Of a DNA stretch of 64,000 nt, positions 1 to 61,820 are shown piece after piece. The stretch is from Hormiphora californensis (lineage: Eukaryota > Animalia > Ctenophora): NCBI GenBank assembly GCA_020137815.1, contig CM035352.1, positions 7,750,001 to 7,814,000 on the forward strand. The letters run 5' to 3'. The notes beneath the pieces are model-generated. The model ran no database searches, was not told where the DNA came from, and was given only the letters and a program-made list of their open reading frames with translations. Within the stretch, counting starts at the first letter, position 1; each line of letters begins with the position of its first letter. Position numbers and translations under genes: made by a program.

Positions 1-3000
1 ACCAATCAGAACCACCAGCCAGTGGACATCCTCGAATAACTGTAAGGGGAGAACTTGTTATATTTAGGTGAATGGGTATCATCTCGCTAAGCCCGGGGAC
101 ATAGGGCAAGTAGAGAGATCCTGAGTGTGATGTCCTAACCCAGGAGTGATAGGAATCCAGTACTTGCCGGGGCCGATGGGGGGGGGGGGGGTACACTTAT
201 TTACCGGGGTGATGATTCACCACTGGTGAGCCGTGAGAGAGGAACCCAGTATTTACCGGGGGCTTGGGGGGGGTGTACTTACCGGTGTACACTCCTGTTG
301 ACTATCAGCTGTCTCTTTAACCGCCCTACATCGCTCCATTAACATTTTGGACAGATAGGGAAGGACGGCACCGGTATTGAGCCGGGCCATACATCCTATC
401 ACCTCTAGTTGGTCCCTGTACTTAACACGATCATCTTCCTCCGACTCAAGGTCTATCTGATTTGAGGGGATTGTGTTTTAGAAGTTTATCTGGGGGATAG
501 ATACGGATTTAGAGGTCTATCTGGGAGGGGGGAGACAGATACCAAGTAAGGTGTCTTTCTGATGATATGGGGATCGGGGGAGGAGATAAGTGGATTTGGA
601 AGGGGAGTTTTAGCTGCTGTTAGGGGAGACATTGCCTTGTTCAGACTCAGCCTCATGAACAATACAAGGCTGACAGGTACTGGAAAGAGATGGTGATGGA
701 GCAACTCAAAATTAATCATTGTACCTCTTCCTCCTTCACATTATCATTCCTAATTCCAGTAGGAGAGGCTAGGTGACACTTGACATAACACTCTACCACC
801 CTCAACACTGCCTGGCCAAGAGGTCCACTCGCCTCAGCCCCCTCGTCCGAGTCATTCTGTAGGAGGGTTAACCAGATATCTAGCACAACGTCAACCACAT
901 CTTGAGTGTCTGCTAGCATCTGGAAGAGAGAGGAGTTGTGAGTCAGCTTCTGGAGTACACATTACATAATCTATTCTCAAAGTAACTCCTTGAGAGGGGA
1001 GATTTAGAGAAGTATAATCAGGGAAAAGCACAAGCTACCTCATCATCCCGGGTCGATGCGATCATGACATTGATAGAGAGATCAGTGATGGCTGATATGA
1101 AAGCACCCCAGAGTCCCTTCTCCATTGCTTCCACTTCTGGTGAACTATTGGTCCACAGAAGTTGGCGAACCGCCAGAGACAGCCCGTGGTACTCGTGATG
1201 GGACTTTGTCGCAGAGGCCCTGGAAAAACGGTGAATGAAATCAGAAATGTAGTACAGAAATGTAGTACAACTACTCAATTAGCTTTCATTTTGCTACCAT
1301 CCTCCTGAAATATCGAGACTGAATTAGCATCTTTAATTCACCTGATAACAAGTTTAGTTATGGCAGAGAGATAGGAAGAAAGGAATTGTTCCTGTTCCCC
1401 GGTTGTTGCGAAGATTGTTCCATTTAGTGTTCCTAACTGAACCAGGCACATTCTGGCCAAATGTTGCAGGTCCTGGTGGCTACCAAATGCTTCGTACAAC
1501 TAGGGGGATGATGTGGTCACGTGACATGTATGGAGAACCGGGGTGAGCCTGATGGCATGTTTTTGGTTTTCAATACTCTCGGGGGGGGGGGGGGGGGGGG
1601 CGTCACCTTTTATTTTGCCCATATTTGCCCATATTTGCCCATATGGGCAAAACTGAATTTTCAAAAATCGTGGGACTTTGGGCAAAATGGGCAAAAATGG
1701 GCAAAAAAATAACTCCTGTACCTTACATCATAGGTATATATATATATAGGTTTATAGCCACTATAATCGAAGCAGAATTTCACGCTGAGGAAGATGCTTG
1801 TATTTATTTTGTTCTAGGACGTTTCTGAAACCCATAAAAGCAAAAAAACCTTAAAAAAAATGTTAGTAGAGGGGTTGTAGCACCGGGAGGTAATGAGTAA
1901 ACACACACACACGCATTGAGCAAGCTCAATGTTTAGCTATTCTCCGGCTGGGTATAGGGCTGAGGTACTGGCAAGATATAGTAGGATCGCTACTGCCCAC
2001 ATGTCAAGTTTATTCGGATATACAAGTTTAAAAGGTTGGGGGGTCACAGGGACCGTCTTAGCTTCGCTCCCCGTTAACATTGCCTGTAACCGGGGGTCCA
2101 CTAAGCTCTCATATATACTCGGCCATTACTCCCAACCACTAGTAGTGGTTTTCAGTACCTCTTATACTGGTAAATCCGTATAGAAACAATCCTTGTGTTT
2201 TAATAGCGATCACTCCGTATATCTTGCACTGACCCAGTATTACCACACATTAATTGTGCAATTGGCACTATGGGATTTCTCCACTGCGGCCGGCACTGTG
2301 AGTAATCAGCCACTATATAAGCTACATCTTGGTTGCTAACCAGTCAATACATTAGTAGAGGGGTTGTAGCACCGGGAGGTAATGAGTAAACACACACACA
2401 CGCATTGAGCAAGCTCAATGTTTAGCTATTCTCCGGCTGGGTATAGGGCTGAGGTACTGGCAAGATATAGTAGGATCGCTACTGCCCACATGTCAAGTTT
2501 ATTCGGATATACAAGTTTAAAAGGTTGGGGGGTCACAGGGACCGTCTTAGCTTCGCTCCCCGTTAACATTGCCTGTAACCGGGGGTCCACTAAGCTCTCA
2601 TATATACTCGGCCATTACTCCCAACCACTAGTAGTGGTTTTCAGTACCTCTTATACTGGTAAATCCGTATAGAAACAATCCTTGTGTTTTAATAGCGATC
2701 ACTCCAGTATATCTTGCACTGACCCAGTATTACCACACATTAATTGTGCAATTGGCACTATGGGATTTCTCCACTGCGGCCGGCACTGTGAGTAATCAGC
2801 CACTATATAAGCTACATCTTGGTTGCTAACCAGTCAATACATTAGTAGAGGGGTTGTAGCACCGGGAGGTAATGAGTAAACACACACACACGCATTGAGC
2901 AAGCTCAATGTTTAGCTATTCTCCGGCTGGGTATAGGGCTGAGGTACTGGCAAGATATAGTAGGATCGCTACTGCCCACATGTCAAGTTTATTCGGATAT

Positions 3001-6000
3001 ACAAGTTTAAAAGGTTGGGGGGTCACAGGGACCGTCTTAGCTTCGCTCCCCGTTAACATTGCCTGTAACCGGGGGTCCACTAAGCTCTCATATATACTCG
3101 GCCATTACTCCCAACCACTAGTAGTGGTTTTCAGTACCTCTTATACTGGTAAATCCGTATAGAAACAATCCTTGTGTTTTAATAGCGATCACTCCATATA
3201 TCTTGCACTGACCCAGTATTACCACACATTAATTGTGCAATTGGCACTATGGGATTTCTCCACTGCGGCCGGCACTGTGAGTAATCAGCCACTATATAAG
3301 CTACATCTTGGTTGCTAACCAGTCAATACATTAGTAGAGGGGTTGTAGCACCGGGAGGTAATGAGTAAACACACACACACGCATTGAGCAAGCTCAATGT
3401 TTAGCTATTCTCCGGCTGGGTATAGGGCTGAGGTACTGGCAAGATATAGTAGGATCGCTACTGCCCACATGTCAAGTTTATTCGGATATACAAGTTTAAA
3501 AGGTTGGGGGGTCACAGGGACCGTCTTAGCTTCGCTCCCCGTTAACATTGCCTGTAACCGGGGGTCCACTAAGCTCTCATATATACTCGGCCATTACTCC
3601 CAACTACTAGTGGTTGGGAGTAATGGCCGAGTATATATGAGAGCTTAGTGGACCCCCGGTTACAGGCAATGTTAACGGGGAGCGAAGCTAAGACGGTCCC
3701 TGTGACCCCCCAACCTTTTAAACTTGTATATCCGAATAAACTTGACATGTGGGCAGTAGCGATCCTACTATATCTTGCCAGTACCTCAGCCCTATACCCA
3801 GCCGGAGAATAGCTAAACATTGAGCTTGCTCAATGCGTGTGTGTGTGTTTACTCATTACCTCCCGGTGCTACAACCCCTCTACTAATGTATTGACTGGTT
3901 AGCAACCAAGATGTAGCTTATATAGTGGCTGATTACTCACAGTGCCGGCCGCAGTGGAGAAATCCCATAGTGCCAATTGCACAATTAATGTGTGGTAATA
4001 CTGGGTCAGTGCAAGATATATGGAGTGATCGCTATTAAAACACAAGGATTGTTTCTATACGGATTTACCAGTATAAGAGGTACTGAAAACCACTACTAGT
4101 GGTTGGGAGTAATGGCCGAGTATATATGAGAGCTTAGTGGACCCCCGGTTACAGGCAATGTTAACGGGGAGCGAAGCTAAGACGGTCCCTGTGACCCCCC
4201 AACCTTTTAAACTTGTATATCCGAATAAACTTGACATGTGGGCAGTAGCGATCCTACTATATCTTGCCAGTACCTCAGCCCTATACCCAGCCGGAGAATA
4301 GCTAAACATTGAGCTTGCTCAATGCGTGTGTGTGTGTTTACTCATTACCTCCCGGTGCTACAACCCCTCTACTAATGTATTGACTGGTTAGCAACCAAGA
4401 TGTAGCTTATATAGTGGCTGATTACTCACAGTGCCGGCCGCAGTGGAGAAATCCCATAGTGCCAATTGCACAATTAATGTGTGGTAATACTGGGTCAGTG
4501 CAAGATATATGGAGTGATCGCTATTAAAACACAAGGATTGTTTCTATACGGATTTACCAGTATAAGAGGTACTGAAAACCACTACTAGTGGTTGGGAGTA
4601 ATGGCCGAGTATATATGAGAGCTTAGTGGACCCCCGGTTACAGGCAATGTTAACGGGGAGCGAAGCTAAGACGGTCCCTGTGACCCCCCAACCTTTTAAA
4701 CTTGTATATCCGAATAAACTTGACATGTGGGCAGTAGCGATCCTACTATATCTTGCCAGTACCTCAGCCCTATACCCAGCCGGAGAATAGCTAAACATTG
4801 AGCTTGCTCAATGCGTGTGTGTGTGTTTACTTAAAAAAAATGACCTCTAATTAGACACCTAATACCATTCTGACCGAGTTTTATCAAAGTTTGCGCTGTT
4901 CTCTCACACTTTAAAGAGATGAAATCAAGCTATAGAGTTGAAAAAACGACATATAACACTGAAAATTGCATTTTGCCCATTTTTGCCCACTTTTGCCCAT
5001 TTTTGCCCATTTTGCCCATATGGGCAAAACCGAAATTCGCTGGGATTATGGGCAATGGGCAAAAAAAAGGTGACGCCCCCCCATACTCTCACGTAACGTG
5101 GTATGTATAGGGAGAAGTAGAAAACACGGGAATGCAATTCAATTCAATTCAATTCAAGTGATCTACCTCAACTAGTATTTGTAGAACACGACCCTCTTTT
5201 AGAACAGTCCAGTCTTTACCAGGGGTTAGATTTACAACAGGCATCGAGAGAAAGGAGATCTGGGCTAGCTTCTTAGCTGAAGAAGGGATGACAATCTTTA
5301 TGAAGGAGCACATTACACAGCAACAGTGGCGAGTTAATTGATAAAAAAGGGATTACAGGCTGAAACAACTTACAAAGTTTAGACTTGACTTGGCTTGACT
5401 TACAAAGAATAAAACCGAAATCCCAGCTCAGGATGGTAAAAAGGATGGACATAACTTGAATCCATTGTCGGAGGTGTTGTGAGATGGAACCTGCACCTCT
5501 CAACTTCCCAACCACCTCAACTACTCCAACAAATATCCGATATAGCGGTCCTTTCTGGGGGAGGGATTGTTGGTTGGATTGTGTACAAGTGCCACATGTT
5601 AATTGTAAATTTTAGTAGTGGCTATAATTCTAGAATATAATTTGAGACTAAGGGTTCTAGGGGAAAAGTTCCAATTAATACCCCAAATACCCCCCATCCC
5701 CAATTACCTCGATTTTCTCCTTGCAATCAAGATTGTGCTGATAACTCATGTAACTAGATAACCCCTTATCAGCCACTGTGAACTCAGCCAATAACGCAGA
5801 GGCTATCTCCAGCCCTAACAGTAGTGTATCAGGTCCAGTTAGTAGCTGGCAAACGTTATCCACAAATGTAGGTAGGAACTCAGAAGGTCGGTCGAGGGAG
5901 GATCTTTTGACTATAATGGCTACAGTGTGGAGAATCTGCTTCAGGACATACGCTTGTAAACTGAGAGGATGGAAAAATGTTAACGATGGGTACTGGATGC

Positions 6001-13976: not shown

Positions 13977-14620
13977 GTTTACAAGTTTACAAGTTTACAA
14001 TTAAAGTTTTATTTATAAAGAAACAGGCCTTCCCTGAATGGGTCCACCTAAATAAAATCAAGTTGAAAAACTATCCCTTCACACTCACACTCATCAGCAC
14101 AGCACAGCACATTGAGGCGAAAGGTCATTTGGAAATGGCGGGTACCCTCTGACTGGAGGACGATCGTGAAATCCTGTCAAGTAATTGCCCAATGATGATT
14201 TGAACTGATTCAAGCTCACACAAGAATTGACAGCAGCAGGTAGAGTGTTCCATAAATGAGCTGCTCTTGGACCAAATGAGCAGTGAAATTGATTAGCTCG
14301 TTTCGTTTCTGCTCTATAGGGGTAAGGTGGTGGGACTATCCGCATACCCAGTCTAGCGTGCTGTTGAAATACTAGGTTGGCAGAGTTAGGTACAAAACCA
14401 TGAATCGTCTTCCACACATGAATCAGAATGTAGCGCTGTCTCCGACGCTGAAGGGACATAAGATTGAGCAATTTCAGTCTATCCCAATAGTCATGACCCT
14501 GCATACCATCAAGACGTCTGGTGAAACAACGTTGGACATTCTCAATAGCCTTGATATCACCAGCCTTGGAAGGGTTCCAGACTAGGCAACAGTACTCAAG
14601 AATAGGCCTGACCAAGGCCT
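13977..14620 (-). mobile_element. 5'-truncated CR1/L2-group LINE (end of ORF2, 3' UTR, TTGTAAAC repeat tail)
   Basis: VRPILEYCCLVWNP...IENVQRCFTR...YWDRLKLLNLMSLQRRR; 8-bp tandem tail at 13977-14000; possible AAGGTTT TSD. Confidence 0.85.
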
Positions 14621-14993
14621 GACCAAGGTTTGATTGGAATCTGAGAAATCTGAAATTCTACGATTTAAACCCGTTTAGAGGCAAAATGTGCATCGCATTA
14701 TGCATGTAGGAACATATTCATCGGGCGGGCCTCACAGAGCCTCCCCTCCTATCACAAATTTTCTTGGCTGGCGGCTGCCCGCTCCAAAACCTTCTCTGCT
14801 TCTCCGGCAAAACCCCCCCGATTTTCAGCTGAAAATAAATTTTTATTTTTATTTTTTTCTAATTCACGAACCCCAACACCGCGCTGATTAGCAAATAGCA
14901 TCACTTTTCATTTTTCACAAATTTTTTCACATTTTAGAATTTTTCGGATTTAAAAAAAGTTTCGGATTTTGGCATACGTTGCAGGCCCCTTAG

Positions 14994-19039: not shown

Positions 19040-30143
<11,104 letters not shown>

Positions 30144-31912: not shown

Positions 31913-33250
31913 ATGGAAAAAGTAAAAGAAATCCCACCTGTTAGAAAACCAGTGAAAAAGAAAACACCAAAAGACACGAAGAAGAAAGAAGCTAAAAAGA
32001 AGAAACGAACCCCGGAAGAACAGGAGGAGTTGAAAGGTCGTATTTTGGAACGAGTTGCCAGAGAGGAGAAAGCCTACAGAATAGTAGAGAGGTTCCTAGA
32101 GAACCCAATATCATCCTCCCTTCTCAAGAAGGCTCTGGCATACATCAACCAAGATGTGTATAATGACATAGTGGAGGAGAGATCCATACTGAAACTCTGT
32201 GGATATCCAGTCTGTTTAGGAAAACTCCCCGCTCAAATCAGGAAACAAACCTGGGCAATTGACAGACGAACAAACAAGGTGTACAAACTGGAGGAGAGAG
32301 TTAAATACTGTTCAGACAAGTGCTATTCCATATCCCGGTCACTCAGAGACAGTCTCTCTCCTGAACCCGTCTGGATGATTCCCAAAGGAGCCCATAAAGA
32401 CATTGTAGTGGTTAGTGTGAGAGAGGAGGTGGATGTGGAGGAGGAGGCGTTGCCTAGCAACCAGAAAATACCTGATATACACCTGGGTGAGGTGGAGCAG
32501 AGAGATAACAAGTTTAGTGACACTGTGCCAGGGGAGGGGTATATAGGGGTGAAACCTGTATCAGGTAGGGCGCTTGAGGAGCAGTTTGAGGGGCTGGGAC
32601 TATCAGATAGTGAAGGAGAGGAGGGTGAGCCAGAGATATCAATATTTGACAGAGCAAGGAGAACTCTACAAAGGATTAAAACTGAAGAATCGGTAACGTT
32701 CCTCCTCTCCAACCCTACAGCCCTTGATTCTGATGATGATTCTGATGGCGGGGAGGAGGATGAAGGGTTGTTGGATGAAGACCTGAAGATAGAGGGATCT
32801 TGTCCCCCCTCCCGGGCACCCATACCAAACTTGGAGGATCTCTCTGGAACAGGGGTGGAAGTGAAGGAGAGCAACACTGGAACAGAAACGTGTATTGTGT
32901 TACCCAGTGTGGATAGTGTAAACCAGGGCCGTCTCAGGAGGACCCTGGTTCTCACTAAGATGCAGCGGGCTGTAGACGCGTTGCTAAGGAGCACAACCCA
33001 TGGTTACAGTGATATATCAGAGACTCTCATTGCGTATGTGACGTCACTCAACTGGGATGCGGAGTCGTGCATGTTGCCAGGGAAGGAGTGTTTGGTTGTC
33101 ACAGGGGTTGTCATGGTGACGTTGTATAGGAAGCTGGACTGTTTGCGGAGTGGTTACACGGTTGAGGAAGTTAGGGATATTATGTGGAGTGGTTGTGGTG
33201 GTGTTGTTACAAGGTCCCAGTTTGATATGTTATGTAGTGTGATGAGTTGA
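31913..33250 (+). CDS. RPAP2: RNA polymerase II CTD phosphatase RPAP2/Rtr1, intronless
   Basis: YNDIVEERSILKLCGYPVC...KYCSDKC zinc-finger motif; C-terminal LPSVDS..Q..LRR. Confidence 0.92.
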   Translation: MEKVKEIPPVRKPVKKKTPKDTKKKEAKKKKRTPEEQEELKGRILERVAREEKAYRIVERFLENPISSSLLKKALAYINQDVYNDIVEERSILKLCGYPVCLGKLPAQIRKQTWAIDRRTNKVYKLEERVKYCSDKCYSISRSLRDSLSPEPVWMIPKGAHKDIVVVSVREEVDVEEEALPSNQKIPDIHLGEVEQRDNKFSDTVPGEGYIGVKPVSGRALEEQFEGLGLSDSEGEEGEPEISIFDRARRTLQRIKTEESVTFLLSNPTALDSDDDSDGGEEDEGLLDEDLKIEGSCPPSRAPIPNLEDLSGTGVEVKESNTGTETCIVLPSVDSVNQGRLRRTLVLTKMQRAVDALLRSTTHGYSDISETLIAYVTSLNWDAESCMLPGKECLVVTGVVMVTLYRKLDCLRSGYTVEEVRDIMWSGCGGVVTRSQFDMLCSVMS

Positions 33251-36700: not shown

Positions 36701-39700
36701 TCTGTCACAGTGGGTGGTTTCTGTCACAGCGGGTGTTTCTGTCACTGTGGGGGTTTCTGTCACAGTATATGTTTCTGTCATGGTGGGGGAGTATTTTACT
36801 CACATTCATGTTCATGGCACATGTGCTGTCGGAGACTATCAAACTCCGAACAACTGCATGCCTCCCCGCCCTGCACCAGGGCTGTGATAATCAACACAAC
36901 AAGACAACTCAACATTATTTGGCTTGTGTTTATTTTGTGTTTCGATCCATTTTATAGTACTTTTATCAGACGGGTTTATTGAGTTAGAATGGATAAATCC
37001 GATTTAAGTTTCTTCAAATGGGAAATCTTCCCATAAACACGGATGTATGAAACTTCTTAAGTAAACAAAGACAAATTCGATGGAAATCGGGAAATCAATC
37101 GTACGCGTGAACTTGTTAACTTGAAATCGAGTCACAAATTCGGACAAAGAAAATAAAAAGCATAACGAGAAATATAACCCTAACCAATTCCCCACGTCCC
37201 TCATCAGGAAAAGAGCGAGAGTCTGAGGGTAACTCTTACTCATCCCCCAGGAAAAGAGCGGGAGTTTGAGGGTATAGTGGATGTACTGGGAGCACGGTGT
37301 GTTTACTTTGAGGGCCAGGCAGGGGAGAAGGTCGTGTATAAGGACCTTCCCACCAGTTGGGAGGGGGAGATTATCGAGAGGAGGAATGAACTAATAGAGT
37401 GCCTTAGTAATGTAGACGAGGAGCTCGGTGAACGGTAAATTATAAATTGTAAATTACCGACTGCAATTTGTATCCCAACCCTGTCTGATTTCTCCAGTTT
37501 AAATCAGGTGATATCATAAACTTTATCTATCAGGTATTTGATGGAGGAGGTGATTAATAACACTGACATAGAACATGCCATTCACCGGAGCGTCCTAGCC
37601 AGAACCTTTACTCCCGTTATAGTGGGTAGTGCACTGAAGAACAAGGGAGTTCAGCCCCTATTGGATTGTGTGAATCGGTACCTTCCTGACCCCTCTGAAG
37701 TCAAGGACTATGCCCTGTCCGTGGAGACTGAGGAGAAGGTGAGAGAGAGATGGGGTGAGAGCCGTGAGAGAGAGATGGGGTGAGAGCCGTGATTGATGGG
37801 ATGGGATGAGAGATGGGGTGAGAGCCGTGAGTGAGATTCCCAGATATTATGAGTTCAGCACTTTCATGCACATCAGATATCTCTATTAATATTTCAGAAA
37901 TCGAGAATCACTTTTGTAAAAATGGAGTTTTAATGTGCAGTCGAAATCTAATGTAGATACCGAGAAATCACGCATCAATTAGTCAACGGCAAACGATCAC
38001 ATTGATGTAGAAAAAGAAGGACACCTGTTTCAAGTCGAACACACACACCCATATGATTTATAAGTGTGATGGGACTCAGAAAATGTCTTCTCATGCTATG
38101 ACTCACCCGCTATTACTCCAATTTAGGTCGAGGTAGATTCTTCGAGGGACAGATCTAAACCAGGGGTTGCTTTAGCGTTCAAGCTGGAAAAGGGCAAGTT
38201 TGGTCAGCTTACCTACATGAGGATTTATCAAGGGTGTTTTAGGAGGGGTAACACTATGGTTAACGTCCGAACAGGTATGTTACCATAGTTACCATTGGTT
38301 ACCACCTGTTAGCACTCTTTACCGCCTGTTACTAACATGTTACCATTGGTTACCATTGATTTCCAACTGTCACCATGGTTACCACACAGGTGATAAGACG
38401 AGGGTACCCCGACTGGTTCTGATGCACAGTAATGAGACACAGGAGATACTGGAGGCTAACGCTGGTGATATTGTCGCTATGATTGGTATGTTGCATAGTA
38501 CATTGGTACAATACTTTGTGAAGAGTACAATCGTGAAGAGTACAATTGTGAAGAGTATATTGTACAAGTTTATTCAATAACTCGTGAAGATTTGGTACAT
38601 TTGGTACCATTATTTGGAAGTATTTTCCCCATTTCCCAGGTATTGATTGTGCTAGTGGGGATACGTTCATGGACGCGGCTGTTCCTCCTAAAGAACAGCT
38701 GTCCATGGAAAGCATGTTCATTCCTGAACCAGTTATCTCCATGACCATCAAGAATCTAAACAGCAAAGATGACAAACGGTTCGGTGATGCTCTCAACCGG
38801 TTCCAGGTATGTTTACTAATTTACTAAGAAACCAAATCATATGCAGGTGTACTAGCAGCATGAACCGACCGAATCAGGAAATACTGGTCCCTGATTGGCT
38901 GATAACCAGTCACGCGACCTAAATAACGAGTTATGATTGGTTGTTTACTTGTTTCGGTCGGTTCCTGGCAGGTGTACTAGCAGTTAGGATAATGGCACCA
39001 GACCAAGTATTCAATGAATCATAGCTCACTTGCAGCAACAGTGTTGATAAAATATCCTCCCGGCTCCCATATTGTCCAAACATACCCCCACTCCCTCCTC
39101 TCCCTCCTGATGATTCAATGATATTGTCAAAGTTCCATCTCATCTCCTTCATCGACAGAGTTGAACCCCCATCTCCCCTCCAGAAAGAGGACCCCACATT
39201 CAAGGTTGAATTTAACCCTGAGACCTAACCCCATCTCCCCATCTCCCCTCCAGAAAGAGGACCCTACATTCAAGGTTGAATTTAACCCAGAGACCTAACC
39301 CCCATCTCCCCCTCTCTCCCCAGAAAGAGGACCCCACATTCAAGGTTGAATTTAACCCGGAGAACAAGCAGATGGTGATCAGTGGGATGGGAGAGCTACA
39401 GCTAGATATCTACGCAGAACGGATCCGTAGGGAGTATGAGTGTGAAGTAGAGTTGGGCACACCCACTGTGAATTACAGGTAAATGAGCTGGGCACACCCA
39501 ATGTTAATTACAGGTACAGTTGGACCCTGACTTACCGGGATGCTCGGAGGAAAGGGGTTTGCCCGGTAAATCCCACAATATGCTATATTTGATGATGTCT
39601 AACCGCTCCACCCTTGCTCAGGGAGACGGTGACAAAAGCGGTACCATTTGAGGTCCAGTACAAGCGGCAGAGTGGTGGTCGGGGTCAGTACGGGTTTGCC

Positions 39701-41290: not shown

Positions 41291-42959
41291 GTATGGGATA
41301 CAGCGAGTACGGGGTGTGAGAGCTGGTGTGGTTTGGGGTTTGGGGTCTGAACTGGTGAGGTGGGGGACAGCGAGTACGGGGTGTGAGAGCTGGTGTGGTT
41401 TGGGGTTTGGGGAGTTTGGGGTCTGAACTGGTGAGGTGGGGGACAGTGGGTTGGGGGTGTGAGTTAGCCAGGACTTGAGTTTGGGGTGTGCGATGGGGGT
41501 CTGAACTGGGGGAGCCGTTGAGGGAGTTTGGGGTGCGAAGGGGGTAGGAATTAATCGCATGGTTTAGGGTGTATGAGGGGACTAGGAGTGAAGAATTTGG
41601 GAACACTGGACAGTGAGTTTGAGGTGATGTTGTTTTAGGATAAGTAAAGTGATCACGGGGGATGGCGTGTGACTTGTGAGATGATCAGTGACCCTTTAAA
41701 GTGTGTGTTAAACCACGTGTTAACTTATTCTGTCTGTTTTTGATACTTTATATACCGTGATGAACTCGGTTTTCTTCCGTCGTACAAGAAACTAAAATTT
41801 CACACCCATCGCGCTGTACTGCTGTTTAGTAAGCCACTTGAAACGCTGATCTTGGGGCAAACTTTGTAACTTTGCTGTTCGTGCCTGCAGCGGGGGGATT
41901 TTGCTGTGCTGCTACACCGCTGCTTAAATGCTCGCTCACACACATTTCGCTGTCTGCTAGTGGTGCCCCAGTAAATCAGATGATTTAGTGGGACATCCCC
42001 GCAGCAGTTTTTTTCTCAACTTTCATTTGAAAAGCATTTTTGAGAATTTGATGTGATATCTATCAGTTGCAGCTTTTGTGTCGTTTTTGTGACCTCCCTT
42101 ATCAGTAAAGTTTGCAAGCATCTCTCCAATTGTAACACCCTGTGCTCACCTCCTGCTCACCTGTCATGAGTGGTAGCTTTTCTAACCGACTCAGAGTGAA
42201 CAGTGATGAAAGAGTGACAAAGGGGGTATACCGTGAGGTTCAGAGTGAAGTTGTGGACCTAGTGCGAGAACTTTTCGTTCATGTTAAGGAAGCAGATTCT
42301 TTCCCCAAGAATTGGTCTGCTAGTTCAGCTTCCTGTTTCTGGGACAATCTGAAGTGTCCTAGTAAGAGTAAGATCAAGGCAGTGGGAAAACCTGAACTTG
42401 CTGAGTTTGCAGAGAAGGCATGTCGCTTGCTAGTTGAGCGGTGTTACCCAGGGGGGGTGACACGTAACACTTTGTAACACTTTGTAACATGTGCAGAAAA
42501 CTTTTTGTGCACGTTACATGTTACAAAGTGTTACATAGTGTTACAAAGTGTTACATAGTGTTACAAAGTGTTACATAGTGTTACAAAGTGTTACATAGTG
42601 TTACAAAGTGTTACATAGTGTTACAAAGTGTTACATAGTGTTACAAAGTGTTACATAGTGTTACAAAGTGTTACAAAGTGTTACATAGTGTTACAAAGTG
42701 TTACATAGTGTTACAAAGTGTTACATAGTGTTACAAAGTGTTACATAGTGTTACAAAGTGTTACATAGTGTTACAAAGTGTTACAAATTGTTACATAGTG
42801 TTACAAAGTGTCACAAAGTGTTACATAGTGTCACAAAGTGTTACAAAGTGTTACAAATTGTTACAAAAACACAAGGATTTGTAGCGAAGCAAATTTTCAA
42901 TCTTAGACCAAAAATTGATTTTGGAAAAATTTTATTTCTTTTTCCAACAGAAACGTTGT

Positions 42960-45900
42960 TGTAATGGTCATGCTTTGAGAGAATTCGGGAGAATTCCCAT
43001 GTCTTATCAACACATCAAATTATCCCCTTCAAGCTAGGTTTTAACATACCCCTCGTCACCCAGTTGGTTGATGGTTCTTATCAACTAATCACGAGGTTGC
43101 CTAGTCAACAGTACTTAATGCTTGAATCAAACCACCAAATCAGAATTCAGAACATTTACTTCTAAGACAATCCCCGCTCTCATCTTTGTCGATAGCTGTA
43201 TTTCTGTATCCCTTTACCCGCACTTAGTTAGACTTTGTTTTCCCACGTCTTTCCCTTTGTTACCCCTGTCCAGCAAACTCTCACTTCACTGTCTGCAACC
43301 AGCGATCACATCACTGTCTGCGACCTGACCAGCATCACCGAGGAGATCATCACAAGTGGAGCCTGATACGAAATCTCCAAGTAAGTGCATCGAATCATGG
43401 CTAGAACCAAAGAACAAATCCTCGCTGACATCAAAGCACTGAACGACCCTACAATCAAACGTGAAGTAGACACCTTGTTCTCCTCTACAAATGACGATCT
43501 CGCTAATGCAATCAACTCGCTTAGCCTCACAATGTCAAATCCCGTCCCAATAAAACAATTTGAGAAAGGAGGCAATTTCTCCAAATTCTGTAAAAGATTC
43601 TTAGATCATGTCGTGACCAATCAAACCCCGGCCGATTCTGTCTATCTTCTTTTCACCCAGAATATATTGTGTGATGATATGTATTCATCAATCAAATCCA
43701 TCGAACTCACACCAGCACAGAAACTAAATCCAAAGGAATTCATTAAAATATTCCAAGATCATGTTTACGGAGAGAATGCTTTAGTTCTTCGTAATGAACT
43801 CCATTCGTGCATCCAGAAGAAATCCGAAACCATCTCCGAATATGCATACAGACTCAGGGATAAATCATCTATCGCTTATCCTGACAATCCAAATCAGGCT
43901 AATAGCGACTGTCTCATTGTTTTTCTGAGAGGTATAAGCAATGCTGATATAAAGAGAAAGGTGAATGAATCCAACACCATCACCGATTTCTCATCCGCTG
44001 TCAAATATGCTAAAAATCTGGAAAATGTCGAAAAAATGTTGAATCAAAAATCAAACAATCAAGTTGAGTTTGCTCTAGTTGCATCATCTGAGCAATATGA
44101 AATCTCCCGTGCTAACAGTTCCAAATCGAGATCCAGCTCACCTCATCCCCGAAGTTATAGACACAGATCATCATCGCGATCTCCATACCGCGACAGAAAT
44201 CGATACCAATCCCGAAATCGCTCCAGCTCAAGATCAAGATCCTACTCGAGCTCCTCAGACTCATGCGAACGACCTTCCAACTCTCAATCCCGATCAAAGA
44301 GAGATATGAAGTGCCATTTTTGTAAGAAGAAAGGTCATTTCAAAAAAGACTGTCAATTTTACATCAATCAAAAAGGTGAAAGAATCCGAATCACCAAATC
44401 GGGTAAATCAAACAAATCCACCTCAACCAATCGATTTCGGAGTAGGCACTAACAAATCTTCCACGTCAAATATCTCCTACACCGATCCAAATTCAGATCA
44501 TGTCAATGAATTAGGTGTAAATCCCTTTACATCACATAAATCGTCATTCCGAGATTCAGTTATGAAATCTCCCGGATCATGGAGTCGAATTTTCCATGAA
44601 TTCACACACATGTTTTCCGTAACATTTTAACACAAACCTTGATGGTATTCACCCGAATCTCCTTTCCCACAGATAATGCTTGGATTTGCAGTACTTGATG
44701 GTACAATATCAATCCAATTAAAACTCACCGTCTCTTGTTGACACTTCGGAAAGAGAGTCATTCGGTATTTGGTCAGATGACCTGGCATGTTGTATTGCAC
44801 TTTTTTAGTTTCACAGATCCCACATATATTAACACGCTAACTGAAGGTGGTCAGGTCACCCACCTTATCGTTATCAAATCAAGGCACCGGAACACAGCAT
44901 AATGTTACGCACAAATCGTTATGTAATACGAGTTTGTGCTCGGGACTTGTTGCCCAGCTGCTTGAACACTAGTGTCTGATCTAGTTGCAGCACCCACTTC
45001 ATATAGCTCGCCTGATTTTACTATGTTAGCTTAGCACTGAAAGTGCCACCCCGACCGATTTAGGCATCGCTATCGATGTAGTTGGCGTTGATGCCATTTC
45101 AAATCGTAATATACACTGCTTTAAATCTTTGCCGATCTACCAAATCTCGTTGAAAAGATTGAGAATCTTTAGAAATCACACAGAGCATTAAAGCAGTGGA
45201 AGGGACAGTTCTTTTCTTATTCTGTCACTAATAATTAAAATCTAACCGAATCACTCCATCTAGCTAATCATCAATTATGTCCTCATCGAAAATATTGAGG
45301 AATCCTGAATCTGATCTGTTCAGCCGTCATACCTAAATCAGAAGTTAGTTCCTGCGTTCCCACCAAATTCCGGTTCGCATACTAACTCAGCAAAATAAAT
45401 CATATTCCGACTGCTGCATCATCAAATGGATTGATCATCTATACCTAATCATCCAAATCCGGCTGCCGTATCCTCTTATGGATACAAAATCTACAAATCG
45501 TGCCAAAAATGTTGGGAAATAGTTGCCAAAATGTTGGGAAATAGTTGCCAAAATGTTGGGGAAGAAAGAAGAAAGAAGATGGCGACGAGACGGAGAACAA
45601 CGAGAAGAGAGTGTCAAGAGTGTGATAGACTCTAATATGAGATGCAAAGACTCTAATATGAGATATAATTTTTAATTTTGATTTGTAATACTACGATTGG
45701 GAAAAGATTCTCTTTTCTTTTTCCTAGAGGGATTTGTAATGGTCATGCTTTGAGAGAATTCGGGAGAATTCCCATGTCTTATCAACACATCAAATTATCC
45801 CCTTCAAGCTAGGTTTTAACATACCCCTCGTCACCCAGTTGGTTCTTATCAACTAATCACGAGGTTGCCTAGTCAACAGTACTTAATGCTTGAATCAAAC

Positions 45901-46122
45901 CACCAAATCAGAATTCAGAACATTTACTTCTAAGACAATCCCCGCTCTCATCTTTGTCGATAGCTGTATTTCTGTATCCCTTTACCCGCACTTAGTTAGA
46001 CTTTGTTATCCCACGTCTTTCCCTTTGTTACCCCTGTCCAGCAAACTCTCACTTCACTGTCTGCAACCAGCGATCACATCACTGTCTGCGACCTGACCAG
46101 CATCACCGAGGAGATCATCACA
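42960..46122 (+). mobile_element. Non-autonomous Ty3/Gypsy-type LTR retrotransposon
   Basis: LTRs 42960-43354 and 45735-46122 (TG...CA, nearly identical); 4-bp TSD TTGT; PBS-like TGGAGCC after the 5' LTR; short purine tract AGAGGGA before the 3' LTR. Confidence 0.93.
43385..44452 (+). CDS. gag: Gag protein
   Basis: Q...ETISEYAYRL major-homology-like motif, FLRGI, RS-rich linker, zinc knuckle CHFCKKKGHFKKDC. Confidence 0.88.
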   Translation: MHRIMARTKEQILADIKALNDPTIKREVDTLFSSTNDDLANAINSLSLTMSNPVPIKQFEKGGNFSKFCKRFLDHVVTNQTPADSVYLLFTQNILCDDMYSSIKSIELTPAQKLNPKEFIKIFQDHVYGENALVLRNELHSCIQKKSETISEYAYRLRDKSSIAYPDNPNQANSDCLIVFLRGISNADIKRKVNESNTITDFSSAVKYAKNLENVEKMLNQKSNNQVEFALVASSEQYEISRANSSKSRSSSPHPRSYRHRSSSRSPYRDRNRYQSRNRSSSRSRSYSSSSDSCERPSNSQSRSKRDMKCHFCKKKGHFKKDCQFYINQKGERIRITKSGKSNKSTSTNRFRSRH

Positions 46123-48479
46123 TTGTATATCATCTTATTAAGTACAAAGAATCGATTACCAATGAAAAAAAGTCGATTGGGTCACAACTCACAGGTGACT
46201 CAGCACATTGGGGACCTCTGAGAGGCACAATACTTCTAATATCACTCTTAAAACTTTACCGTTGTCTAAAGTTCATATTTTTCTTTACCAAATGGACTAT
46301 TTCAGCCCTGATTTCCACAGTCGATGACATCGGAGGCTCAAAACATCCGCAAATTAGTAAAAAAGTGTATGTTTTAACCCTAGAAATGATGTAAAACTTT
46401 TAGATGTGTTCTAGAAAGACACCAAAGTCGTTCAAATTACTTATTCACCAACCGTTGAAAATTTGCTTCGCTACAAATCCTTGTGCTTTTGTAACACTTT
46501 GTAACAATTTGTAACACTTTGTAACAATTTGTAACACTTTGTGACACTATGTAACACTTTGTAACACTATGTAACACTATGTAACACTATGTAACACTTT
46601 GTAACACTATGTAACACTTTGTAACACTATGTAACACTTTGTAACACTATGTAACACTTTGTAACACTTTGTAACACTTTGTAACACTTTGTAACACTAT
46701 GTAACACTTTGTAACACTTTGTAACACTTTGTAACACTATGTAACACTTTGTAACATGTGCAGAAAACTTTTTGTGCGCGTTACATGTTACAAAGTGTTA
46801 CAAAGTGTTACGTGTCACCCCCCCCTACCCAGCTATTGATAAGCTGTCTATTGAAACTGAGGAGTGTGAGAGGAGAATCATTGACTGCCAAGAGGAGCTA
46901 ATCACCGCACAGCGTTTGTTAGTTGAGGCACAGGACCGCTTAGTTAAGCTACAGTGTCAACTGTTGGAGAAGAGAGACGGTGAAATTAGTGCTGTGCAGA
47001 CTACCGCTGAGAGGGAGATGAAATCATTTGCTAATGTTCTCCAGAAGAATTGTGAGACTGCCCTAGCACCGCAGCGAGTACGTCAGGCTATTGCTGTAGC
47101 GACAGAGGACAGGACGAGCAATGTTATTGTTCACGGTCTGTTTGATGACCCGCTTGAGAACGATCAGGATCTGGAGAGCGAGATCAAGAGAGTGTTTAAC
47201 AGTATGGGTGCTTGTATTACTGGTATTTCCAGTATGAAGCGACTTGGGAAGTATAAGGATGGCTCTGACCGGCCTGTAAAGCTACGTTTATGTGGCAAAG
47301 ACTTCCGAGATCAAATACTATCCAGTAAGAAATCTCTGAAAAACTCTGATAGGCACAAAAGTGTCTATATTTCCCCCTGACCGTTCTCCGGAGGAGAGAG
47401 AGGAGAGGAGGAAGCTGGTGGTAGCGCTGAAGGAGAGGAAGGAGGCGGAGCCGGGGAAGACATTTGGGATTCGAGGGGGCAAGGTGGAGGAAGTGTGAGA
47501 GACAGTACGAGACTGCTGTGTTTGAGTTTGTGTATTTACAAATTAAGTTAGGTTTTGAACTGGACTTTTGGGCATCAGAGCACCGGACATTTAGATGGGA
47601 TTTAGAACATTTTATTCATTTTTAAGACTATAGTTATTTTTGCAATGGTGAACCGCTCTGATTGCCGTGTAGTTTACTAGTTTTTTAGTTCTGGTAACCT
47701 ATATGGTATGAGCGTGTATATAAGTACGGATATTATTATTATTATTATTATATCCATCATGTTTCGTTGAACAAAACAAACAGTTTGGATATTGGAGCTG
47801 CTTCTGAGGACGCGTCATCAAGTGAATTACAGGTGAGAGAGGGGGTACATGGTATTACTAATTTACCATTGGTAATATAATAGTAGTCAGGTGAATGAAT
47901 GGGAAGAACGATTATACCGCATACAGACCAGATACATCTTCTTTATAACTATCACTTAAATAGCTATCATATCACCAACACACCCCACATCAGATTGTTA
48001 TGTTCGAGGGGGCTGTCAACTAGTGTTTAGTATTGCTGTACACACACACCCACACCTGCTGCACAAGATAGCTTAAACTGTAGTAACTCTTCCATATTTA
48101 GTCAGATCATCAGGGAAAGGGAGGGAGAGAGAGAGAACAAGAGAAAGGTATTATATAGAGAAAGGAGATATAATAAGACATAATATATAACATGTAGGGA
48201 AGGTCAGAGAGATTCCTAGAAAGATCACTTGCTGAGTAACAAAGAAAGACTAAATTGAAACTCGTATTTCAGGGAGAGCACCTGTCGCACACCATCAACC
48301 ACCCCCTCCATCCCTCCACCCCAACCACCCCTCCACCCCCCCCCCCCACTTCCCCACACCATGTGACACAGTAACTACTCGTGTGATTATTCACAAATAC
48401 ATATTGGACTATATATATATACTATACAGTAGTCATGTATTAAATATGTGTAATAGCAGCTCTCACTAAGATTTATACC

Positions 48480-54740: not shown

Positions 54741-55369
54741 GCCTGCTATAAGTTACGTGATGTAGGGGGTAACTGCTATAATACGTTAATAAATGGAGCT
54801 GTGTGTAATCAATGATGTAGGGTATACCTAGCCTGCTGTGTGTTATTATTGTAGGGGTTTTAGGGTGGACATGGACAATTCAACAACTAGAGGGTCAGTT
54901 GTCCTGTTATACGCTCCAAGGAGTGGCTGCCATTGATATAGGTGCATAGGAAAACGTACACATAATTGTACTGTTCAAACAACATCTTACACAACAAACT
55001 CCACCACACCAGTCTGATTATAATGTCAATATAAAGGCGAATATGATAGCATCCGTAATTCTCAACACATGTGAGCTTGAGGTTTCAAAAAGAATTAATG
55101 CAAGAATCCGAATGATTCATCTGCCCCCTCCTCCGGTTGAAAAAGAGTAACAAATATTAAAGTAATATTGAGCAAGTAATAACAAATGTGAGTCAGGCAA
55201 GGGCCAGCTGTTTCAAATTGGTAGTAAAATTTCGATTCGTATTTAGAAAGTAAATTGTAAATATAATTATGCATAATTTATTCGTGGGACCCCTCGAATT
55301 CAAACCCAAGAAAACGCAAAGTCACGGTCACCCTCGGTGTATAACACTCCAAACAATCATCCCCCCCCC

Positions 55370-55407
<38 letters not shown>

Positions 55408-57061
55408 ACACACACACACACACACACATACGAGGGGAAAATAAGAGGACACAAAGGTCAGAACAAAAGCCCAAAACAATAGCCTCCATAAAATTGCGAT
55501 GGTTCCCTCTAACCGGCTGTTAGCACCAAGGCTGCAGAAACGAGTGAAAGCTCGAGTTCTAGTCTGAAAAAACTTGAGCGGGATAGTCTGCGAGCTCACC
55601 ATAATTTTTCCGGGAAATTTTATCTCTCTCTCTTTATGAGTCTCTTTCCCCAAACCTTCTCTCTCAGCTCTTCCTTCCTTAATTTCTCTCTCTTTCTCTC
55701 TTCTTCTCCACCCCTCACCCCCGTTTTCCCCTTCTCTCCCCAAAAGCCTTTGTGTACAGCTCACAGAGGGCTTGTAGTACACTAACCCCAGGTCGGGGTT
55801 ACAAACAGAGGCCGAGGTTCCGGGGGGTCTGGAAAACTTTCCAAAACAGCAGTGAAATATGAGAGTTGAGAGAGGAACAAAAAAAAAAAGGGGTGGGAGA
55901 AAGGGAAGGGGGATGGGGAAAAGGGGAGGAAAGATACATGTATAGCGATAATTTCCCCCCCTATCCCCAATCTACTCTCTCTTTCCCTACTTTCTCCTTT
56001 ATTCGCTTTATTTTCTCCTTCCCACGCCAAACACCGGGGGCGCGGTCAGATAAGCAAGAGCCGGGTTAGGTGGTGGTCCCTGGAGGAGAGCTAGGAGCAG
56101 CAGAGAGGAGGGGGGGAGAGAGAGAGATAGACGAGAGAGAGAAGAGTAGAGAGCACAAGAAAGCGAGCGAGGAAAAGAAAGAAAGAGTAGCGGAAAGAAA
56201 AAGATGGGGGAGAGAGAGGAAGACCGAGAGATGGAAAAGAGAGAGAGAGAAGGGGAGAACGCATTCGGCCTAAAGGGGTTAGTGGAAAGTGGTTGGAGAA
56301 GCTAAAAGGGGTGAGGGGGGTTTAAAGAGGGTTAGATTAAAGGGAGAGAGAAATAGAGGTCTAGATATAATGCAATACTTTCAAGAGAAATAAATGAAAT
56401 CGCTGCATGATTCAATGTCCCCTGTTGATGATTAGTTTCCCGAACACAGAAAAGTTTTGGGACTACCACTTGATCCCTGGTTAATTTAAGAAACTTTTCC
56501 ACATTGACACTCGAACAGAGCTCCCTTTATTGGATGTAATGGCTTTTTTGGTTTTTTTAAACCAAAGATAACGTTTTAAACAACCTAGATACTGGGGCTT
56601 TCGTACAAAAAAAAACGGTTTTTTGGTTTTTGAAAAAACCAAATAATACGGGAAGAAAAAAAATTAAAAATCGGCTATTAATTAAAGTTTTCCGTTTGGT
56701 CGAGTAAATTTTAAAATCTAAATTTTTATTAAAAGCGTTTAATAAAATTTAAAAAATTTGGTAGGGGTTTTTTCGAAAATTTGAAACCGGGGGGGCAATT
56801 GGTCCTGTTTTGAAAAAGTCTTGTGCAAAATGTTAAACCGCGGGCAAAAGGGGTAATATTTTTTTTTGTGAGCTTTTTTTGTCCCCTTTTTTCCCCAAGC
56901 GCCAAATTTTTTACGTGGTATTGCAGGCATTTCATTGGTCCAAGCAGGTAAAGAGGACCAATCTGAATTGAGGATTATCAGTGTGTGTTCCTTTGTACTG
57001 TGGTGCTTAATTTAGAACTTGGTTTTTGACCCCTGAGCGCACTATTGAGACAGAACACGAA

Positions 57062-57139
<78 letters not shown>

Positions 57140-57272
57140 GTTGATTTTGCACGTGTTGTCCCTTGGTACAGTGCATAACACTTTAGTGTGTAATTAGTAT
57201 GTGTTCCTTTCGGTGGTGCTTGATTTTGAACTTTGTTTTTGGCCAGCTAGTGATACACGGATGACTCTTTCA

Positions 57273-57321
<49 letters not shown>

Positions 57322-57329
57322 ACACAGGT

Positions 57330-57408
<79 letters not shown>

Positions 57409-57641
57409 TTCTAAGCCATATCTTGAATAAATAGTTTTCAATTAGTTATAATTTTTGGCGATCTTCTCCACTAGTAGAATGCCTAAGACTAAAACTTTAA
57501 CTAGCTCCTGTTGCATACCCTACCATTGTTTTATTTGCACATAATACGTTTTCTAGTGATGGTCCGCACCTACAAGAAAAAAACTAGTACTGCTTACTCT
57601 CCAGAAGTTTTGAAAAAAGCACTCGGCGAAAGTCGTAAGCT

Positions 57642-57748
57642 AGGAACCGACCGAATCAGGAAATACTGGTCCCTGATTGGCTGATAACCAGTCACGTGAC
57701 CTAAATAACGAGTTCTGATTGGTTGTTTACTTAATTCGGTCGGTTCCT
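57642..57748 (+). mobile_element. About 105-bp hairpin-ended repeat, copy 2, inside the transposase
   Basis: AGGAACCGACCGAA TIR; flanks GTCGTAAGCT / GTCGTAAACT. Confidence 0.85.
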
Positions 57749-58106
57749 GTCGTAAACTAGGACGACCTACCCGAGCTATTTCTAGACAGTACAAAGTTCC
57801 TTTCACAACCCTTCGGCGCCATTATAACGCCAGCGCACAACCCGGTCCTTCTGGTCGTTCTGCCTCACTCTCCGCGTCTGATGAACAGTACCTCGTTAGT
57901 GCTCTTATTCATGCGGGTGAGCTTGGTTGGCCCTTTTCAAAGAACATGTTGAAAGATGTTGTTCAGTGCTTTGTTCGTCAGTGTGGTTTAAAAACCCCGT
58001 TCAAGAATAACAGGCCTGGAGATGACTGGTATCGGTCGTTTATGGCTCGTCATAGAAATGATCTGTCCGTGAGGAAACCTGAGGTGGTCACAACAGCTAG
58101 GGCTAA

Positions 58107-58383
58107 GGGTCACCACACACCAAAGTTAAAATTAAAATTAAAATTTTAATTTTAAACCCGCACACACCAACGGCCGTTAAAATGTCTCTCCCCATTCTAA
58201 AAGTAACAATCTCACGCACGATTTTGACGGTCGCGTTGGATGACAAAATTTTAACACGCCGTTAAAATCGCGCGCGAGATTGTTACTTTTAGAATGGGGG
58301 AGAGAAATTTTAACGGCCGCTGGTGTGTGCGGGTTTAAAATCAAAATTTTAATTTTAATTTTAACTTTGGTGTGTGGTGACCC
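58107..58383. mobile_element. Palindromic PIF/Harbinger (Tourist-like) MITE inside the transposase
   Basis: GGGTCACCACACACCAAAGTTAAAATT TIR; TAA TSD; removing it restores TARAK|GLTSE. Confidence 0.9.
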
Positions 58384-60413
58384 TAAGGGTTTGACATCTG
58401 AGGTGGTTAACTTGTTCTTTGATCTTGCTGAGCGGAAAGCGGACGAAGGCGGGTATAGAGACATTAAACAGCGTATCTGGAACTGCGACGAAACGGGACT
58501 CTCCACTAATGGAGCTGGAAATAGCTTGATATACAGACGCGGTACTAAGGACGCTCAACTTCTTGCGCCAAACGAGGGCAAATCCCAGTACACAGTTTTA
58601 TTCGCGTGCAATGCTAGCGGGGACTTTATGCCACCGTACATTGTCTATAAAGCGGAGCATCTGCATGATACATGGGTAAGGAACGGTCCTGAGGGCACTA
58701 TGTACAACACATCCCGTTCTGGATGGATGGAGATCGAAACGTTTGCCGAATGGTTTTGCAAAATGTTTGTACCGTTCGTCAAAGATTACGAGAAGCCCCT
58801 TGTTCTATATTTTGACGGCCATGGCTCCCATCTTTCAGCAGAGACAATCCACGCAGCAATTGACAACCATATATTCCTTATATGCTTACCAGCACACACA
58901 TCAGGTGCTCTCCAACCGTTAGATGTATCTGTCTTCAAGGGTGCGAAGGCTGCGTGGACCAAGATTCTCAGTCGATTTTACAGAGAGTCCAGACACGAAC
59001 ACATCAAAAAAGAGCATTTCCCTGCTCTTGTCTCGGATCTGTTTAAATTTATTACAACTCATGCCGGGGCTGCGGTTAACGGATTCATAAAGACAGGGTT
59101 GTGTCCTCTTGATAGATCAATCATACCTAAAGAAAAGATAATTCTATCGGCCACAACAGTAACTCAGGGACCCTCCACTTCTAGTGACATTCTACCAGCA
59201 ACTCCAGTGACACCCAAGTCAGCTATGCGCAACGCTATCATTTCGACACTTGCCCCAAAGCTGTCAGAGACAACAGCTGCAGCTATTACTAACGGGAAGC
59301 AGAGTCGACGGCGAGTTCAGCGAAAAGGCGGTGAATGTTTATCAGAGCAATCAGTCCTGGAGAGAATTAAGGAGGCCGATCTGGAACGCCAGGCAAAAAA
59401 GAACAAGGCAAAAGTGGTTAAAATTAAAAGTGCCGGAACTAAACCTCAGAAGTCTGGTAAAAATAAACTCATGGTAGTAGGTAAATTGGATCGATCTGAT
59501 GAGGATAATGATACTGAAGAGGGAAAAAAGGTTGACTTTATCCCCCGCCCAGCGGTACCACCTGTTACTCCGACTAGAACTCTGCGTTCTAGGTCCAGGC
59601 TAACCTTGCAGGGATGGAAGTGATGTTCCTACTTCTAGTTTCAACCCTGCATTTGAGAATGCCGAATATTTTTATTTAATTTAATACATTTTTATTACAC
59701 ATAGGTACATGTTTATTTACACCGTGTTCATAAGCTTCGTTTCTTAATAAATGTGTTATTGAAGTGTTTTTACTTCAAAATTAACTTAAACCCTCTCTAT
59801 TTAGCCTAACATGACGATTAGACGCCTCTAGATCAAGAACTGGTGAGTTAAGAAGGGGTTTTAATAGACAATAGTCAACTTAGTATTAAATAGGAAAATC
59901 TAACAAACTAAGGGTCTATATTATTTGTCCCAGAGTGGTCTACTTTGCCCCAGAGAGGTGTACCACTTTGCCCCAGAGAGGTGTGCCACTTTGCCCCACG
60001 GTCACAAAATTGACAATCAAGACAACAAAATTGACAATTTCTTGCAAATTTTTATACCAAATTTGAGAGATAAAAAGACCTAACTGGTACAGCAGTTTGA
60101 AACCGAAAAAAAAAACTAAAGACAAGGAGTTTGATATGATACGAGAAAAAATATGAACATAGATGCACAAGACTAGCTGCATATCATAATTGATATGAGA
60201 GCAAGAACAAAACCTAGATACAAAACCTAGATACACACAAGACAAGGAGTATAAAAGAACTTGCAGATATACATTAGACAAGGATCAGCATGATATGAGA
60301 GAAAGAAAAAGATAGAGGGTACCTCCATTGCCTCTGGCTGCTGCAAGAGCTCTCAAAGGTGCCATTATACCTAACATGGTGATTACTCTAAGCTCACATC
60401 TCTTTTCGTAGTG

Positions 60414-61729: not shown

Positions 61730-61820
61730 CAGGACCGAAACAAGTAAACAACCAATCAGAACTCGTTATTTAGGTCACGTGACTGGTTATCAGCCAATCA
61801 GGGACCAGTATTTCCTGATT
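61730..61820 (-). mobile_element. About 105-bp hairpin-ended repeat, copy 3, truncated
   Basis: Reverse complement of copies 1 and 2; flanked by 18-bp duplication CCACCACGGTCACGCACA. Confidence 0.8.

Follow-up and report, generated by a model that had tools for sequence, protein, structure and literature searches.

We have analysed a 64-kb stretch of the Hormiphora californensis genome (contig CM035352.1 of assembly GCA_020137815.1, positions 7,750,001 to 7,814,000), hereafter the window, which carries a 2,969-bp array composed of a 489-bp unit. It is likely that this 489-bp family is a protein-free, non-autonomous passenger of Penelope-like elements (PLEs), inserted by two-ended target-primed reverse transcription (TPRT) on multimeric RNA. 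The partner is probably a PLE of the Naiad type without a canonical hammerhead, and the most likely template, at roughly even odds, is a linear transcript of a pre-existing array with its units head to tail.

Tandem Repeats Finder and a base-by-base walk resolved the array into two back-to-back arms. Positions within the unit are given as phases, with window position 1863 as phase 1:

1863..3604, minus strand: left arm, 3.56 units, phase 1 to 274, the 3' end being outermost on the putative sense strand
1863..1895, minus strand: one-sided 33-nt 'tail', between the two putative reverse-transcription start sites
1913..1930 (phase 51-68), no strand assigned: perfect 8-bp hairpin, one per unit, adjoining a (CA)n tract
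2133..2149 (phase 271-287): hairpin or palindrome, one per unit; the inversion junction is centred on its ACTAGT core
3603..3614: inversion junction, where two same-strand cDNA ends could anneal
3605..4831, plus strand: right arm, 2.51 inverted units, phase 282 down to 34, the outer end lacking a tail

The walk bears out the initial annotation, which from the letters alone had described about six near-identical units, head-to-tail and then inverted, that start and end at different phases. The sole site that varies among the units is phase 354, reading G, AG and A in the forward arm and A and A in the reverse arm. At the two outer ends the same unit strand is read inwards: the top strand begins at phase 1 and the bottom strand at phase 34 (phase 36 if CT is counted as target), the two ends lying 33 bases apart on that strand; thus, it is likely that extension of both cut ends of the target used the same strand as template. 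At the inversion junction, pairing of two cDNA ends is possible at 10 of 12 bases, the central six being perfect, and as the unit holds 12 palindromes of six bases, the use of ACTAGT is not rare by itself. The window contains no further copy of the unit, the best match being 17 bp long at 23219, with nothing significant from nhmmer.

The array interrupts a host element, a non-autonomous terminal inverted repeat (TIR) element at about 1581-5082 that would be some 520 bp long without it, and is bracketed there by a target-site duplication:

1581..1862: host element, left part, with a G-run terminus and 10-bp subterminal repeats
1852..1862, plus strand: target-site duplication, left copy, 11 bp (13 bp with CT at 1850-1851)
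4832..4842, plus strand: target-site duplication, right copy
4843..5082: host element, right part

In agreement with the direct repeat of 12-13 bp noted at the outset, CTTAAAAAAAATG is present in the window at 1850 and 4830 only and is absent from the unit. The C and T at 4830-4831 also match the unit, so the strict duplication is refined to 11 bp, with an upper limit of 13. As a chance control, site pairs elsewhere in the window were screened at seven spacings and with two bases of slack, and an 11-bp repeat abutting both ends was recovered in 13 of 389,921. Complementarity between primer and template at the ends is slight (two bases on the right, largely wobble pairs on the left), and we did not rely on it. 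The host element has an 8-bp duplication of its own, ATACTCTC at 1573-1580 and 5083-5090. Considered as a miniature inverted-repeat transposable element (MITE; window 1573-5090), it reaches high depth with many variants in contigs from other samples, and its terminal GG, 8-bp duplication and repeats in the TIRs are reminiscent of Merlin transposons.

Words of the unit were found in 20 of the 24 sequencing runs listed, namely six DNA runs of the same organism (from two samples), eight marine or viral metagenomes and six metatranscriptomes; none of the 24 is an RNA run of the organism itself. Four runs, X2, X6, X12 and X14, were aligned as contigs. The empty host copy with a single target motif, proposed initially as a check, was indeed found in an independent sample: one contig of run X6 (sample S3, depth 133.5) joins 1852 to 4833 and thereby skips 2,980 positions, equal to the 2,969 of the array plus the 11 of the duplication, with 39 letters on its shorter side; the letters in between are not known. 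Three further X6 joints jump the array into 4841, one of them with 38 other letters, and look like host-element variants. None among the joints shown carries the motif twice. The array is a young and probably polymorphic insertion.

These data also bear on a more trivial origin, in situ expansion of a satellite followed by inversion, or misassembly of a palindromic array, to which we attach a very low probability. In favor of such an origin, no contig among those listed bridges the array or an array-host junction, and the G/AG/A site resembles a consensus error, which a collapsed array may have caused; the unit number may likewise be mis-assembled. Neither process, however, yields a target duplication around both arms, rare as such repeats are in the chance control, nor end phases that recur in other samples. 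The earlier proposal of a one-step insertion of a ready-made multimer, rather than satellite expansion, is accordingly upheld by the empty site, by the multicopy nature of the family and by inversion joints other than the one in the window.

Indeed, the unit is a multicopy family in the second sample (X6). There, summed depth amounts to about 357,000 for phases 1-122, 164,000 for phases 123-259 and 55,000-60,000 further on, with flanks at 439-784, and X2 presents the same order more weakly, within a twofold range (16,800, 13,100, 8,900 and 8,000); a predominance of 5'-truncated copies could give such a gradient, but the depth bins match phases only roughly, and summed contig depth is not equivalent to copy number. 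Of 27 joints 15 are shown, and 8 of these turn from forward to reverse, with clearly distinct phases in five cases. Both outer start points of the array recur to within one base in unrelated samples. In X12 a single RNA contig of 277 nt holds 21 foreign letters, then phases 2-102 and then, reversed, phases 305-151, and it may represent DNA carry-over or read-through. The contig of X14 runs through phases 9-33 and then, reversed, 69-33, before exiting into a T-rich flank. The initial annotation had taken variable start phases as a sign of a circle; that the starts recur at phases 1-2 and 33-34, matching the tail of PLEs, leaves this interpretation unsupported. Five RNA runs (X16-X20, shares of 0.14-0.23) were not counted as evidence. 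Matches in other collections, none and one among metagenome contigs and one in each of two scans of viral contigs, span 19-25 bp only and were set aside as chance, two of the loci (L002 and L003) being contigs of equal length with the same match.

Several published PLE systems are comparable to this arrangement. According to Craig et al. 2021 (PMC8557442), PLE insertions take the form of partial tandems with 5' truncation, next to which lies an inverted copy, and one end carries a tail of 30-40 bp. For the PLEs of Adineta vaga, Arkhipova et al. 2013 (PMC3846280, in part) report 8-10-bp duplications, a 31-bp tail, mobilisation in trans, and palindromes at inverted junctions that are read as self-priming. 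Frangieh et al. 2024 (PMC11167929) show that a purified PLE protein cuts A/T-rich DNA on both strands and extends each of them, that the tail is bounded by its two internal initiation sites, and that hammerhead cleavage is dispensable. An active pair of autonomous and non-autonomous PLEs is reported to yield short truncated insertions (PMC9977147, in part). The array in the window displays an inverted, 5'-truncated arm that gives inverted repeats around the insertion, a one-sided tail of matching length, bounded by phases 1 and 34 here and by phases 2 (X12) and 33 (X14) in one contig each, and an A/T-rich target duplication with an empty allele.

Following the PLE reading, the enzyme would nick both strands of the A/T-rich target 11 bases apart, and multimeric unit RNA, corresponding to the minus strand of the left arm as the depth gradient suggests, would be copied onto both cut ends from the same template strand. 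Phases 1 and 34 would then represent two internal reverse-transcription start sites, and the two cDNAs, of 3.56 and 2.51 units, could anneal at the ACTAGT palindrome before fill-in. On the putative RNA strand 22 of the 33 tail bases are A or C, placing the tail in a tie for second among 489 windows of the unit. Intact fold-back self-priming at the hairpin of phases 271-287 was also considered; the whole hairpin should then have stayed at the junction, which is not seen and weakly disfavors it.

Besides the coarseness of the depth data, a number of observations weigh against the PLE reading. None of the 85 open reading frames (ORFs) of the window that were scanned with Pfam matched a reverse transcriptase (RT) or GIY-YIG family. 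Zero of four tail-region motifs were found in the supplement of PMC8557442, and no homology of the unit to a known pseudo-long terminal repeat (pLTR) was seen. The target is an A-tract, while Naiads are reported to prefer (TA)n. Seven of the eight inversion joints have fewer than 30 letters on the shorter side and are flagged as weak, three of the eight fold at a near-identical phase, and each recurring end is represented by a single contig of low depth (4.9 for X12 and 3.2 for X14). Finally, shuffled sequences fold as well as the region of the start sites does (z -0.27 and 0.82).

It appears improbable that a LINE retroposed a tandem transcript by twin priming of the L1 type. This explanation would account for an A-rich target resembling TT/AAAA, for a duplication of 11-13 bp and for an inversion with microhomology, and the window holds a candidate LINE-like reading-frame remnant at 14094-14657, which had no Pfam match. 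When L1 twin priming takes place on one RNA, one arm should end near the start phase of the other; here the junction phases are 274 and 282, as opposed to starts at 1 and 34. The array also lacks a poly(A) or simple-repeat end, and together with the junction phases this leaves the LINE-type priming at TT/AAAA suggested initially unsupported. The 33-nt one-sided tail is a further point against, such tails being described in PMC8557442 (passages available) as not seen in non-LTR TPRT.

The unit is non-coding: its length of 489 is a multiple of three, yet each of the six circular frames contains 4-14 stops. The circular fold has a small stability advantage over 60 shuffled versions (z -2.4 for either strand) with hardly more pairing, 63-65% of bases compared with 60-62%. 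Rfam gave no match at E up to 10 for 1850-2900 and none at gathering score for the whole window. CUGANGA, and with it the HHR_core string of Naiads, is absent from both strands of the unit, and a relaxed hammerhead search that allowed one core change and a 2-bp stem II returned no match in the unit; the closest resemblance, CUGAUUA ... GAAA spaced by 23 nt on the minus strand, has G8 changed and stem II unclosed. A hepatitis delta virus (HDV)-like fold was rejected, as the plus strand gave no rows and the minus strand seven, all at one site, with P1 broken and no P1.1. Candidates of other kinds were likewise discarded: for a viroid-like or Zeta-like circle the unit displays neither a rod-like fold, ribozymes nor an endless frame, and for a short interspersed element derived from tRNA, no tRNA genes were detected in 1500-5200 and none of the 17 B-box (GWTCRANNC) matches is located in the array.

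A word at 2295-2310 on the minus strand, with an equivalent in each unit, agrees at 14 of 16 positions with a word that includes CTGATGA and lies close to the 3' end of the consensus of the Beroe Naiad. The likeness was spotted by eye and post hoc among several hundred words, with 0.09 occurrences expected per 64 kb for that word, and it sits on the opposite side of the tail; we therefore treat it as no more than a lead. Possibly it is a decayed half of a hammerhead core, or chance. The Mnemiopsis Naiad consensus likewise shows CTGATGA near its end.

With these results at hand, a rival that differs from the favoured reading only in template can be weighed, namely that the PLE enzyme used a 489-nt monomer circle and copied it round from both cut ends. 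The element would then be retrozyme-like, with an unrecognised ribozyme or some other route to circles. We regard both the circular template and this retrozyme-like identity as unlikely, without being negligible, and the more specific version, a 489-nt circular RNA lacking a known ribozyme (or having a new one) on which a PLE dimer rolls from both cut strands at two fixed sites, as somewhat less likely again. A circle is suggested by both arms being multimers with one differing site in 2,969 bp, and by the slightly better circular fold. Moreover, internal initiation by PLE enzymes requires no RNA end (PMC11167929, in part), and animal retrozymes are tandem, circle-forming and linked to PLE ends, from which they are proposed to come (excerpts of PMC7229834 and bioRxiv 10.64898/2026.07.22.740005). 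Conversely, no ribozyme emerged from Rfam, the CUGANGA motif or the relaxed core, leaving only the poor HDV-like candidates; the fold is not rod-like, with pairing close to that of shuffles; the single RNA contig that was aligned is a copy with flank and inversion rather than a clean monomer; and the forward units are not all identical.

Animal non-LTR retrozymes (PMC7229834 and bioRxiv 10.64898/2026.07.22.740005) have in common with the present family non-coding units that are a few hundred bp long and arranged in tandem, a GC content below 50%, duplications longer than 4 bp and a proposed dependence on PLEs; the unit showed no LTR, primer-binding site or polypurine tract, although no search specific to the latter two was made. 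Retrozymes are, however, defined by a type I hammerhead (PMC7229834, in part), which is absent from the 489-bp unit. Thus, the insertion works like that of a retrozyme but the unit is not one by the defining feature, and the retrozyme membership put forward in the initial annotation is not sustained, with neither a hammerhead nor another Rfam ribozyme found in the unit.

According to PMC8557442, two ctenophores, Beroe and Mnemiopsis, carry Naiads without canonical hammerheads, the HHR_core string (cuganga, 7-17 nt, gaaa) being present in some Naiads only, and non-autonomous Chlamys PLEs of Chlamydomonas form multicopy head-to-tail insertions. The Chlamys element MRC1 resembles the present family in being non-coding, multicopy head-to-tail and frequently 5'-truncated, and in belonging to a clade mostly without canonical hammerheads; it differs in being algal and sharing 3' ends with an identified autonomous family (PMC8557442), whereas here the host is an animal and no partner was found among the window ORFs scanned. 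With the endonuclease-bearing PLEs, that is Pen2a/Pen2/Pen3a of Adineta vaga (PMC3846280), the Naiads (PMC8557442) and Poseidon PAc of Anolis (PMC11167929), the array has in common the inverted arm, the junction palindrome and the A/T-rich target, and the dimensions are similar in the parts of these papers available (tail of 31-40 bp versus 33 here, duplication of 8-10 bp versus 11 here). In contrast to them, the array has no RT or endonuclease frame and no hammerhead core, and both its arms are multimers of the whole 489-bp unit.

A rolling-circle DNA element, either Helitron/DINE-1-like or an integrated minicircle resembling circular Rep-encoding single-stranded (CRESS) DNA viruses, is the least probable origin we considered. 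Congruent with it are the tandem units, the (CA)n tract and the hairpins, as well as the nonamer CAGTATTAC at phase 373 (2235-2243), which resembles the CRESS-virus origin, and one of the runs with unit words is a viral metagenome. The nonamer nevertheless lies outside any hairpin loop and has a chance rate between 1% (YAGTATTAC) and 9% (NANTATTAC). HUH-type elements are not expected to leave an 11-bp duplication with an empty site, as present here. The viral-metagenome run, furthermore, also carries pieces of the host MITE, and the scans of viral contigs gave nothing beyond the short matches mentioned above.

The insertion architecture is itself known. The routes by which PLEs generate tandem and inverted insertions are, on the other hand, stated as open in the relevant passages of PMC11167929 and PMC8557442, and the locus would record both priming events, the 11-bp nick stagger and the annealed junction together, in a single young copy for which an empty allele exists and of which both arms are multimers. 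A short, non-coding and ribozyme-free unit represents a simple substrate for separating a circle from a linear multimer as template, and for addressing the need for hammerheads. Should a ribozyme-free circle prove to be the template, the family would constitute a hammerhead-free class of animal retrozymes in an early-branching animal, and provide direct genomic evidence of PLE tandems arising from circles. A narrow literature search found no description of a ctenophore family of this kind, and the passages available of the pleurobrachiid genome paper (PMC8527503) make no mention of Penelope or retrozymes.

The window also contains features apart from the array. A second TIR element at 42451-46824 terminates in G runs, has a 10-bp repeat in long arrays on both arms and is flanked by TACCCAG as its duplication. 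Nested in it, at about 42960-46122, is a small long terminal repeat (LTR) retroelement, its TG...CA repeats about 390 bp long, with an apparent 4-bp duplication; it has one gag-like frame (43385-44452) with a weak zinc-knuckle match, and no pol frame was seen in it. An open frame of 459 amino acids at 58244-59623 encodes a DDE_1 (pogo-like) transposase. At 19482-30140, MMS19 exons on the plus strand enclose a gene of the CCA-adding/poly(A) polymerase family on the minus strand (23319-25309), representing a nested arrangement. For the gene at 31913-33247, the nearest named match is a Pleurobrachia bachei protein, 89% identical over 79% of the length; the remaining 13 matches reach 30-46% identity, and the cluster of one of these includes a Bolinopsis microptera member. 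This points to a ctenophore near Pleurobrachia as the likely host. Finally, a 31-bp repeat occurs at 26368-27420 in two blocks of the same orientation about 900 bp apart, and a repeat of about 100 bp is present three times, at 38862-38967, 57644-57749 and 61733-61820, the copies being 96-98% alike and one of them inverted.

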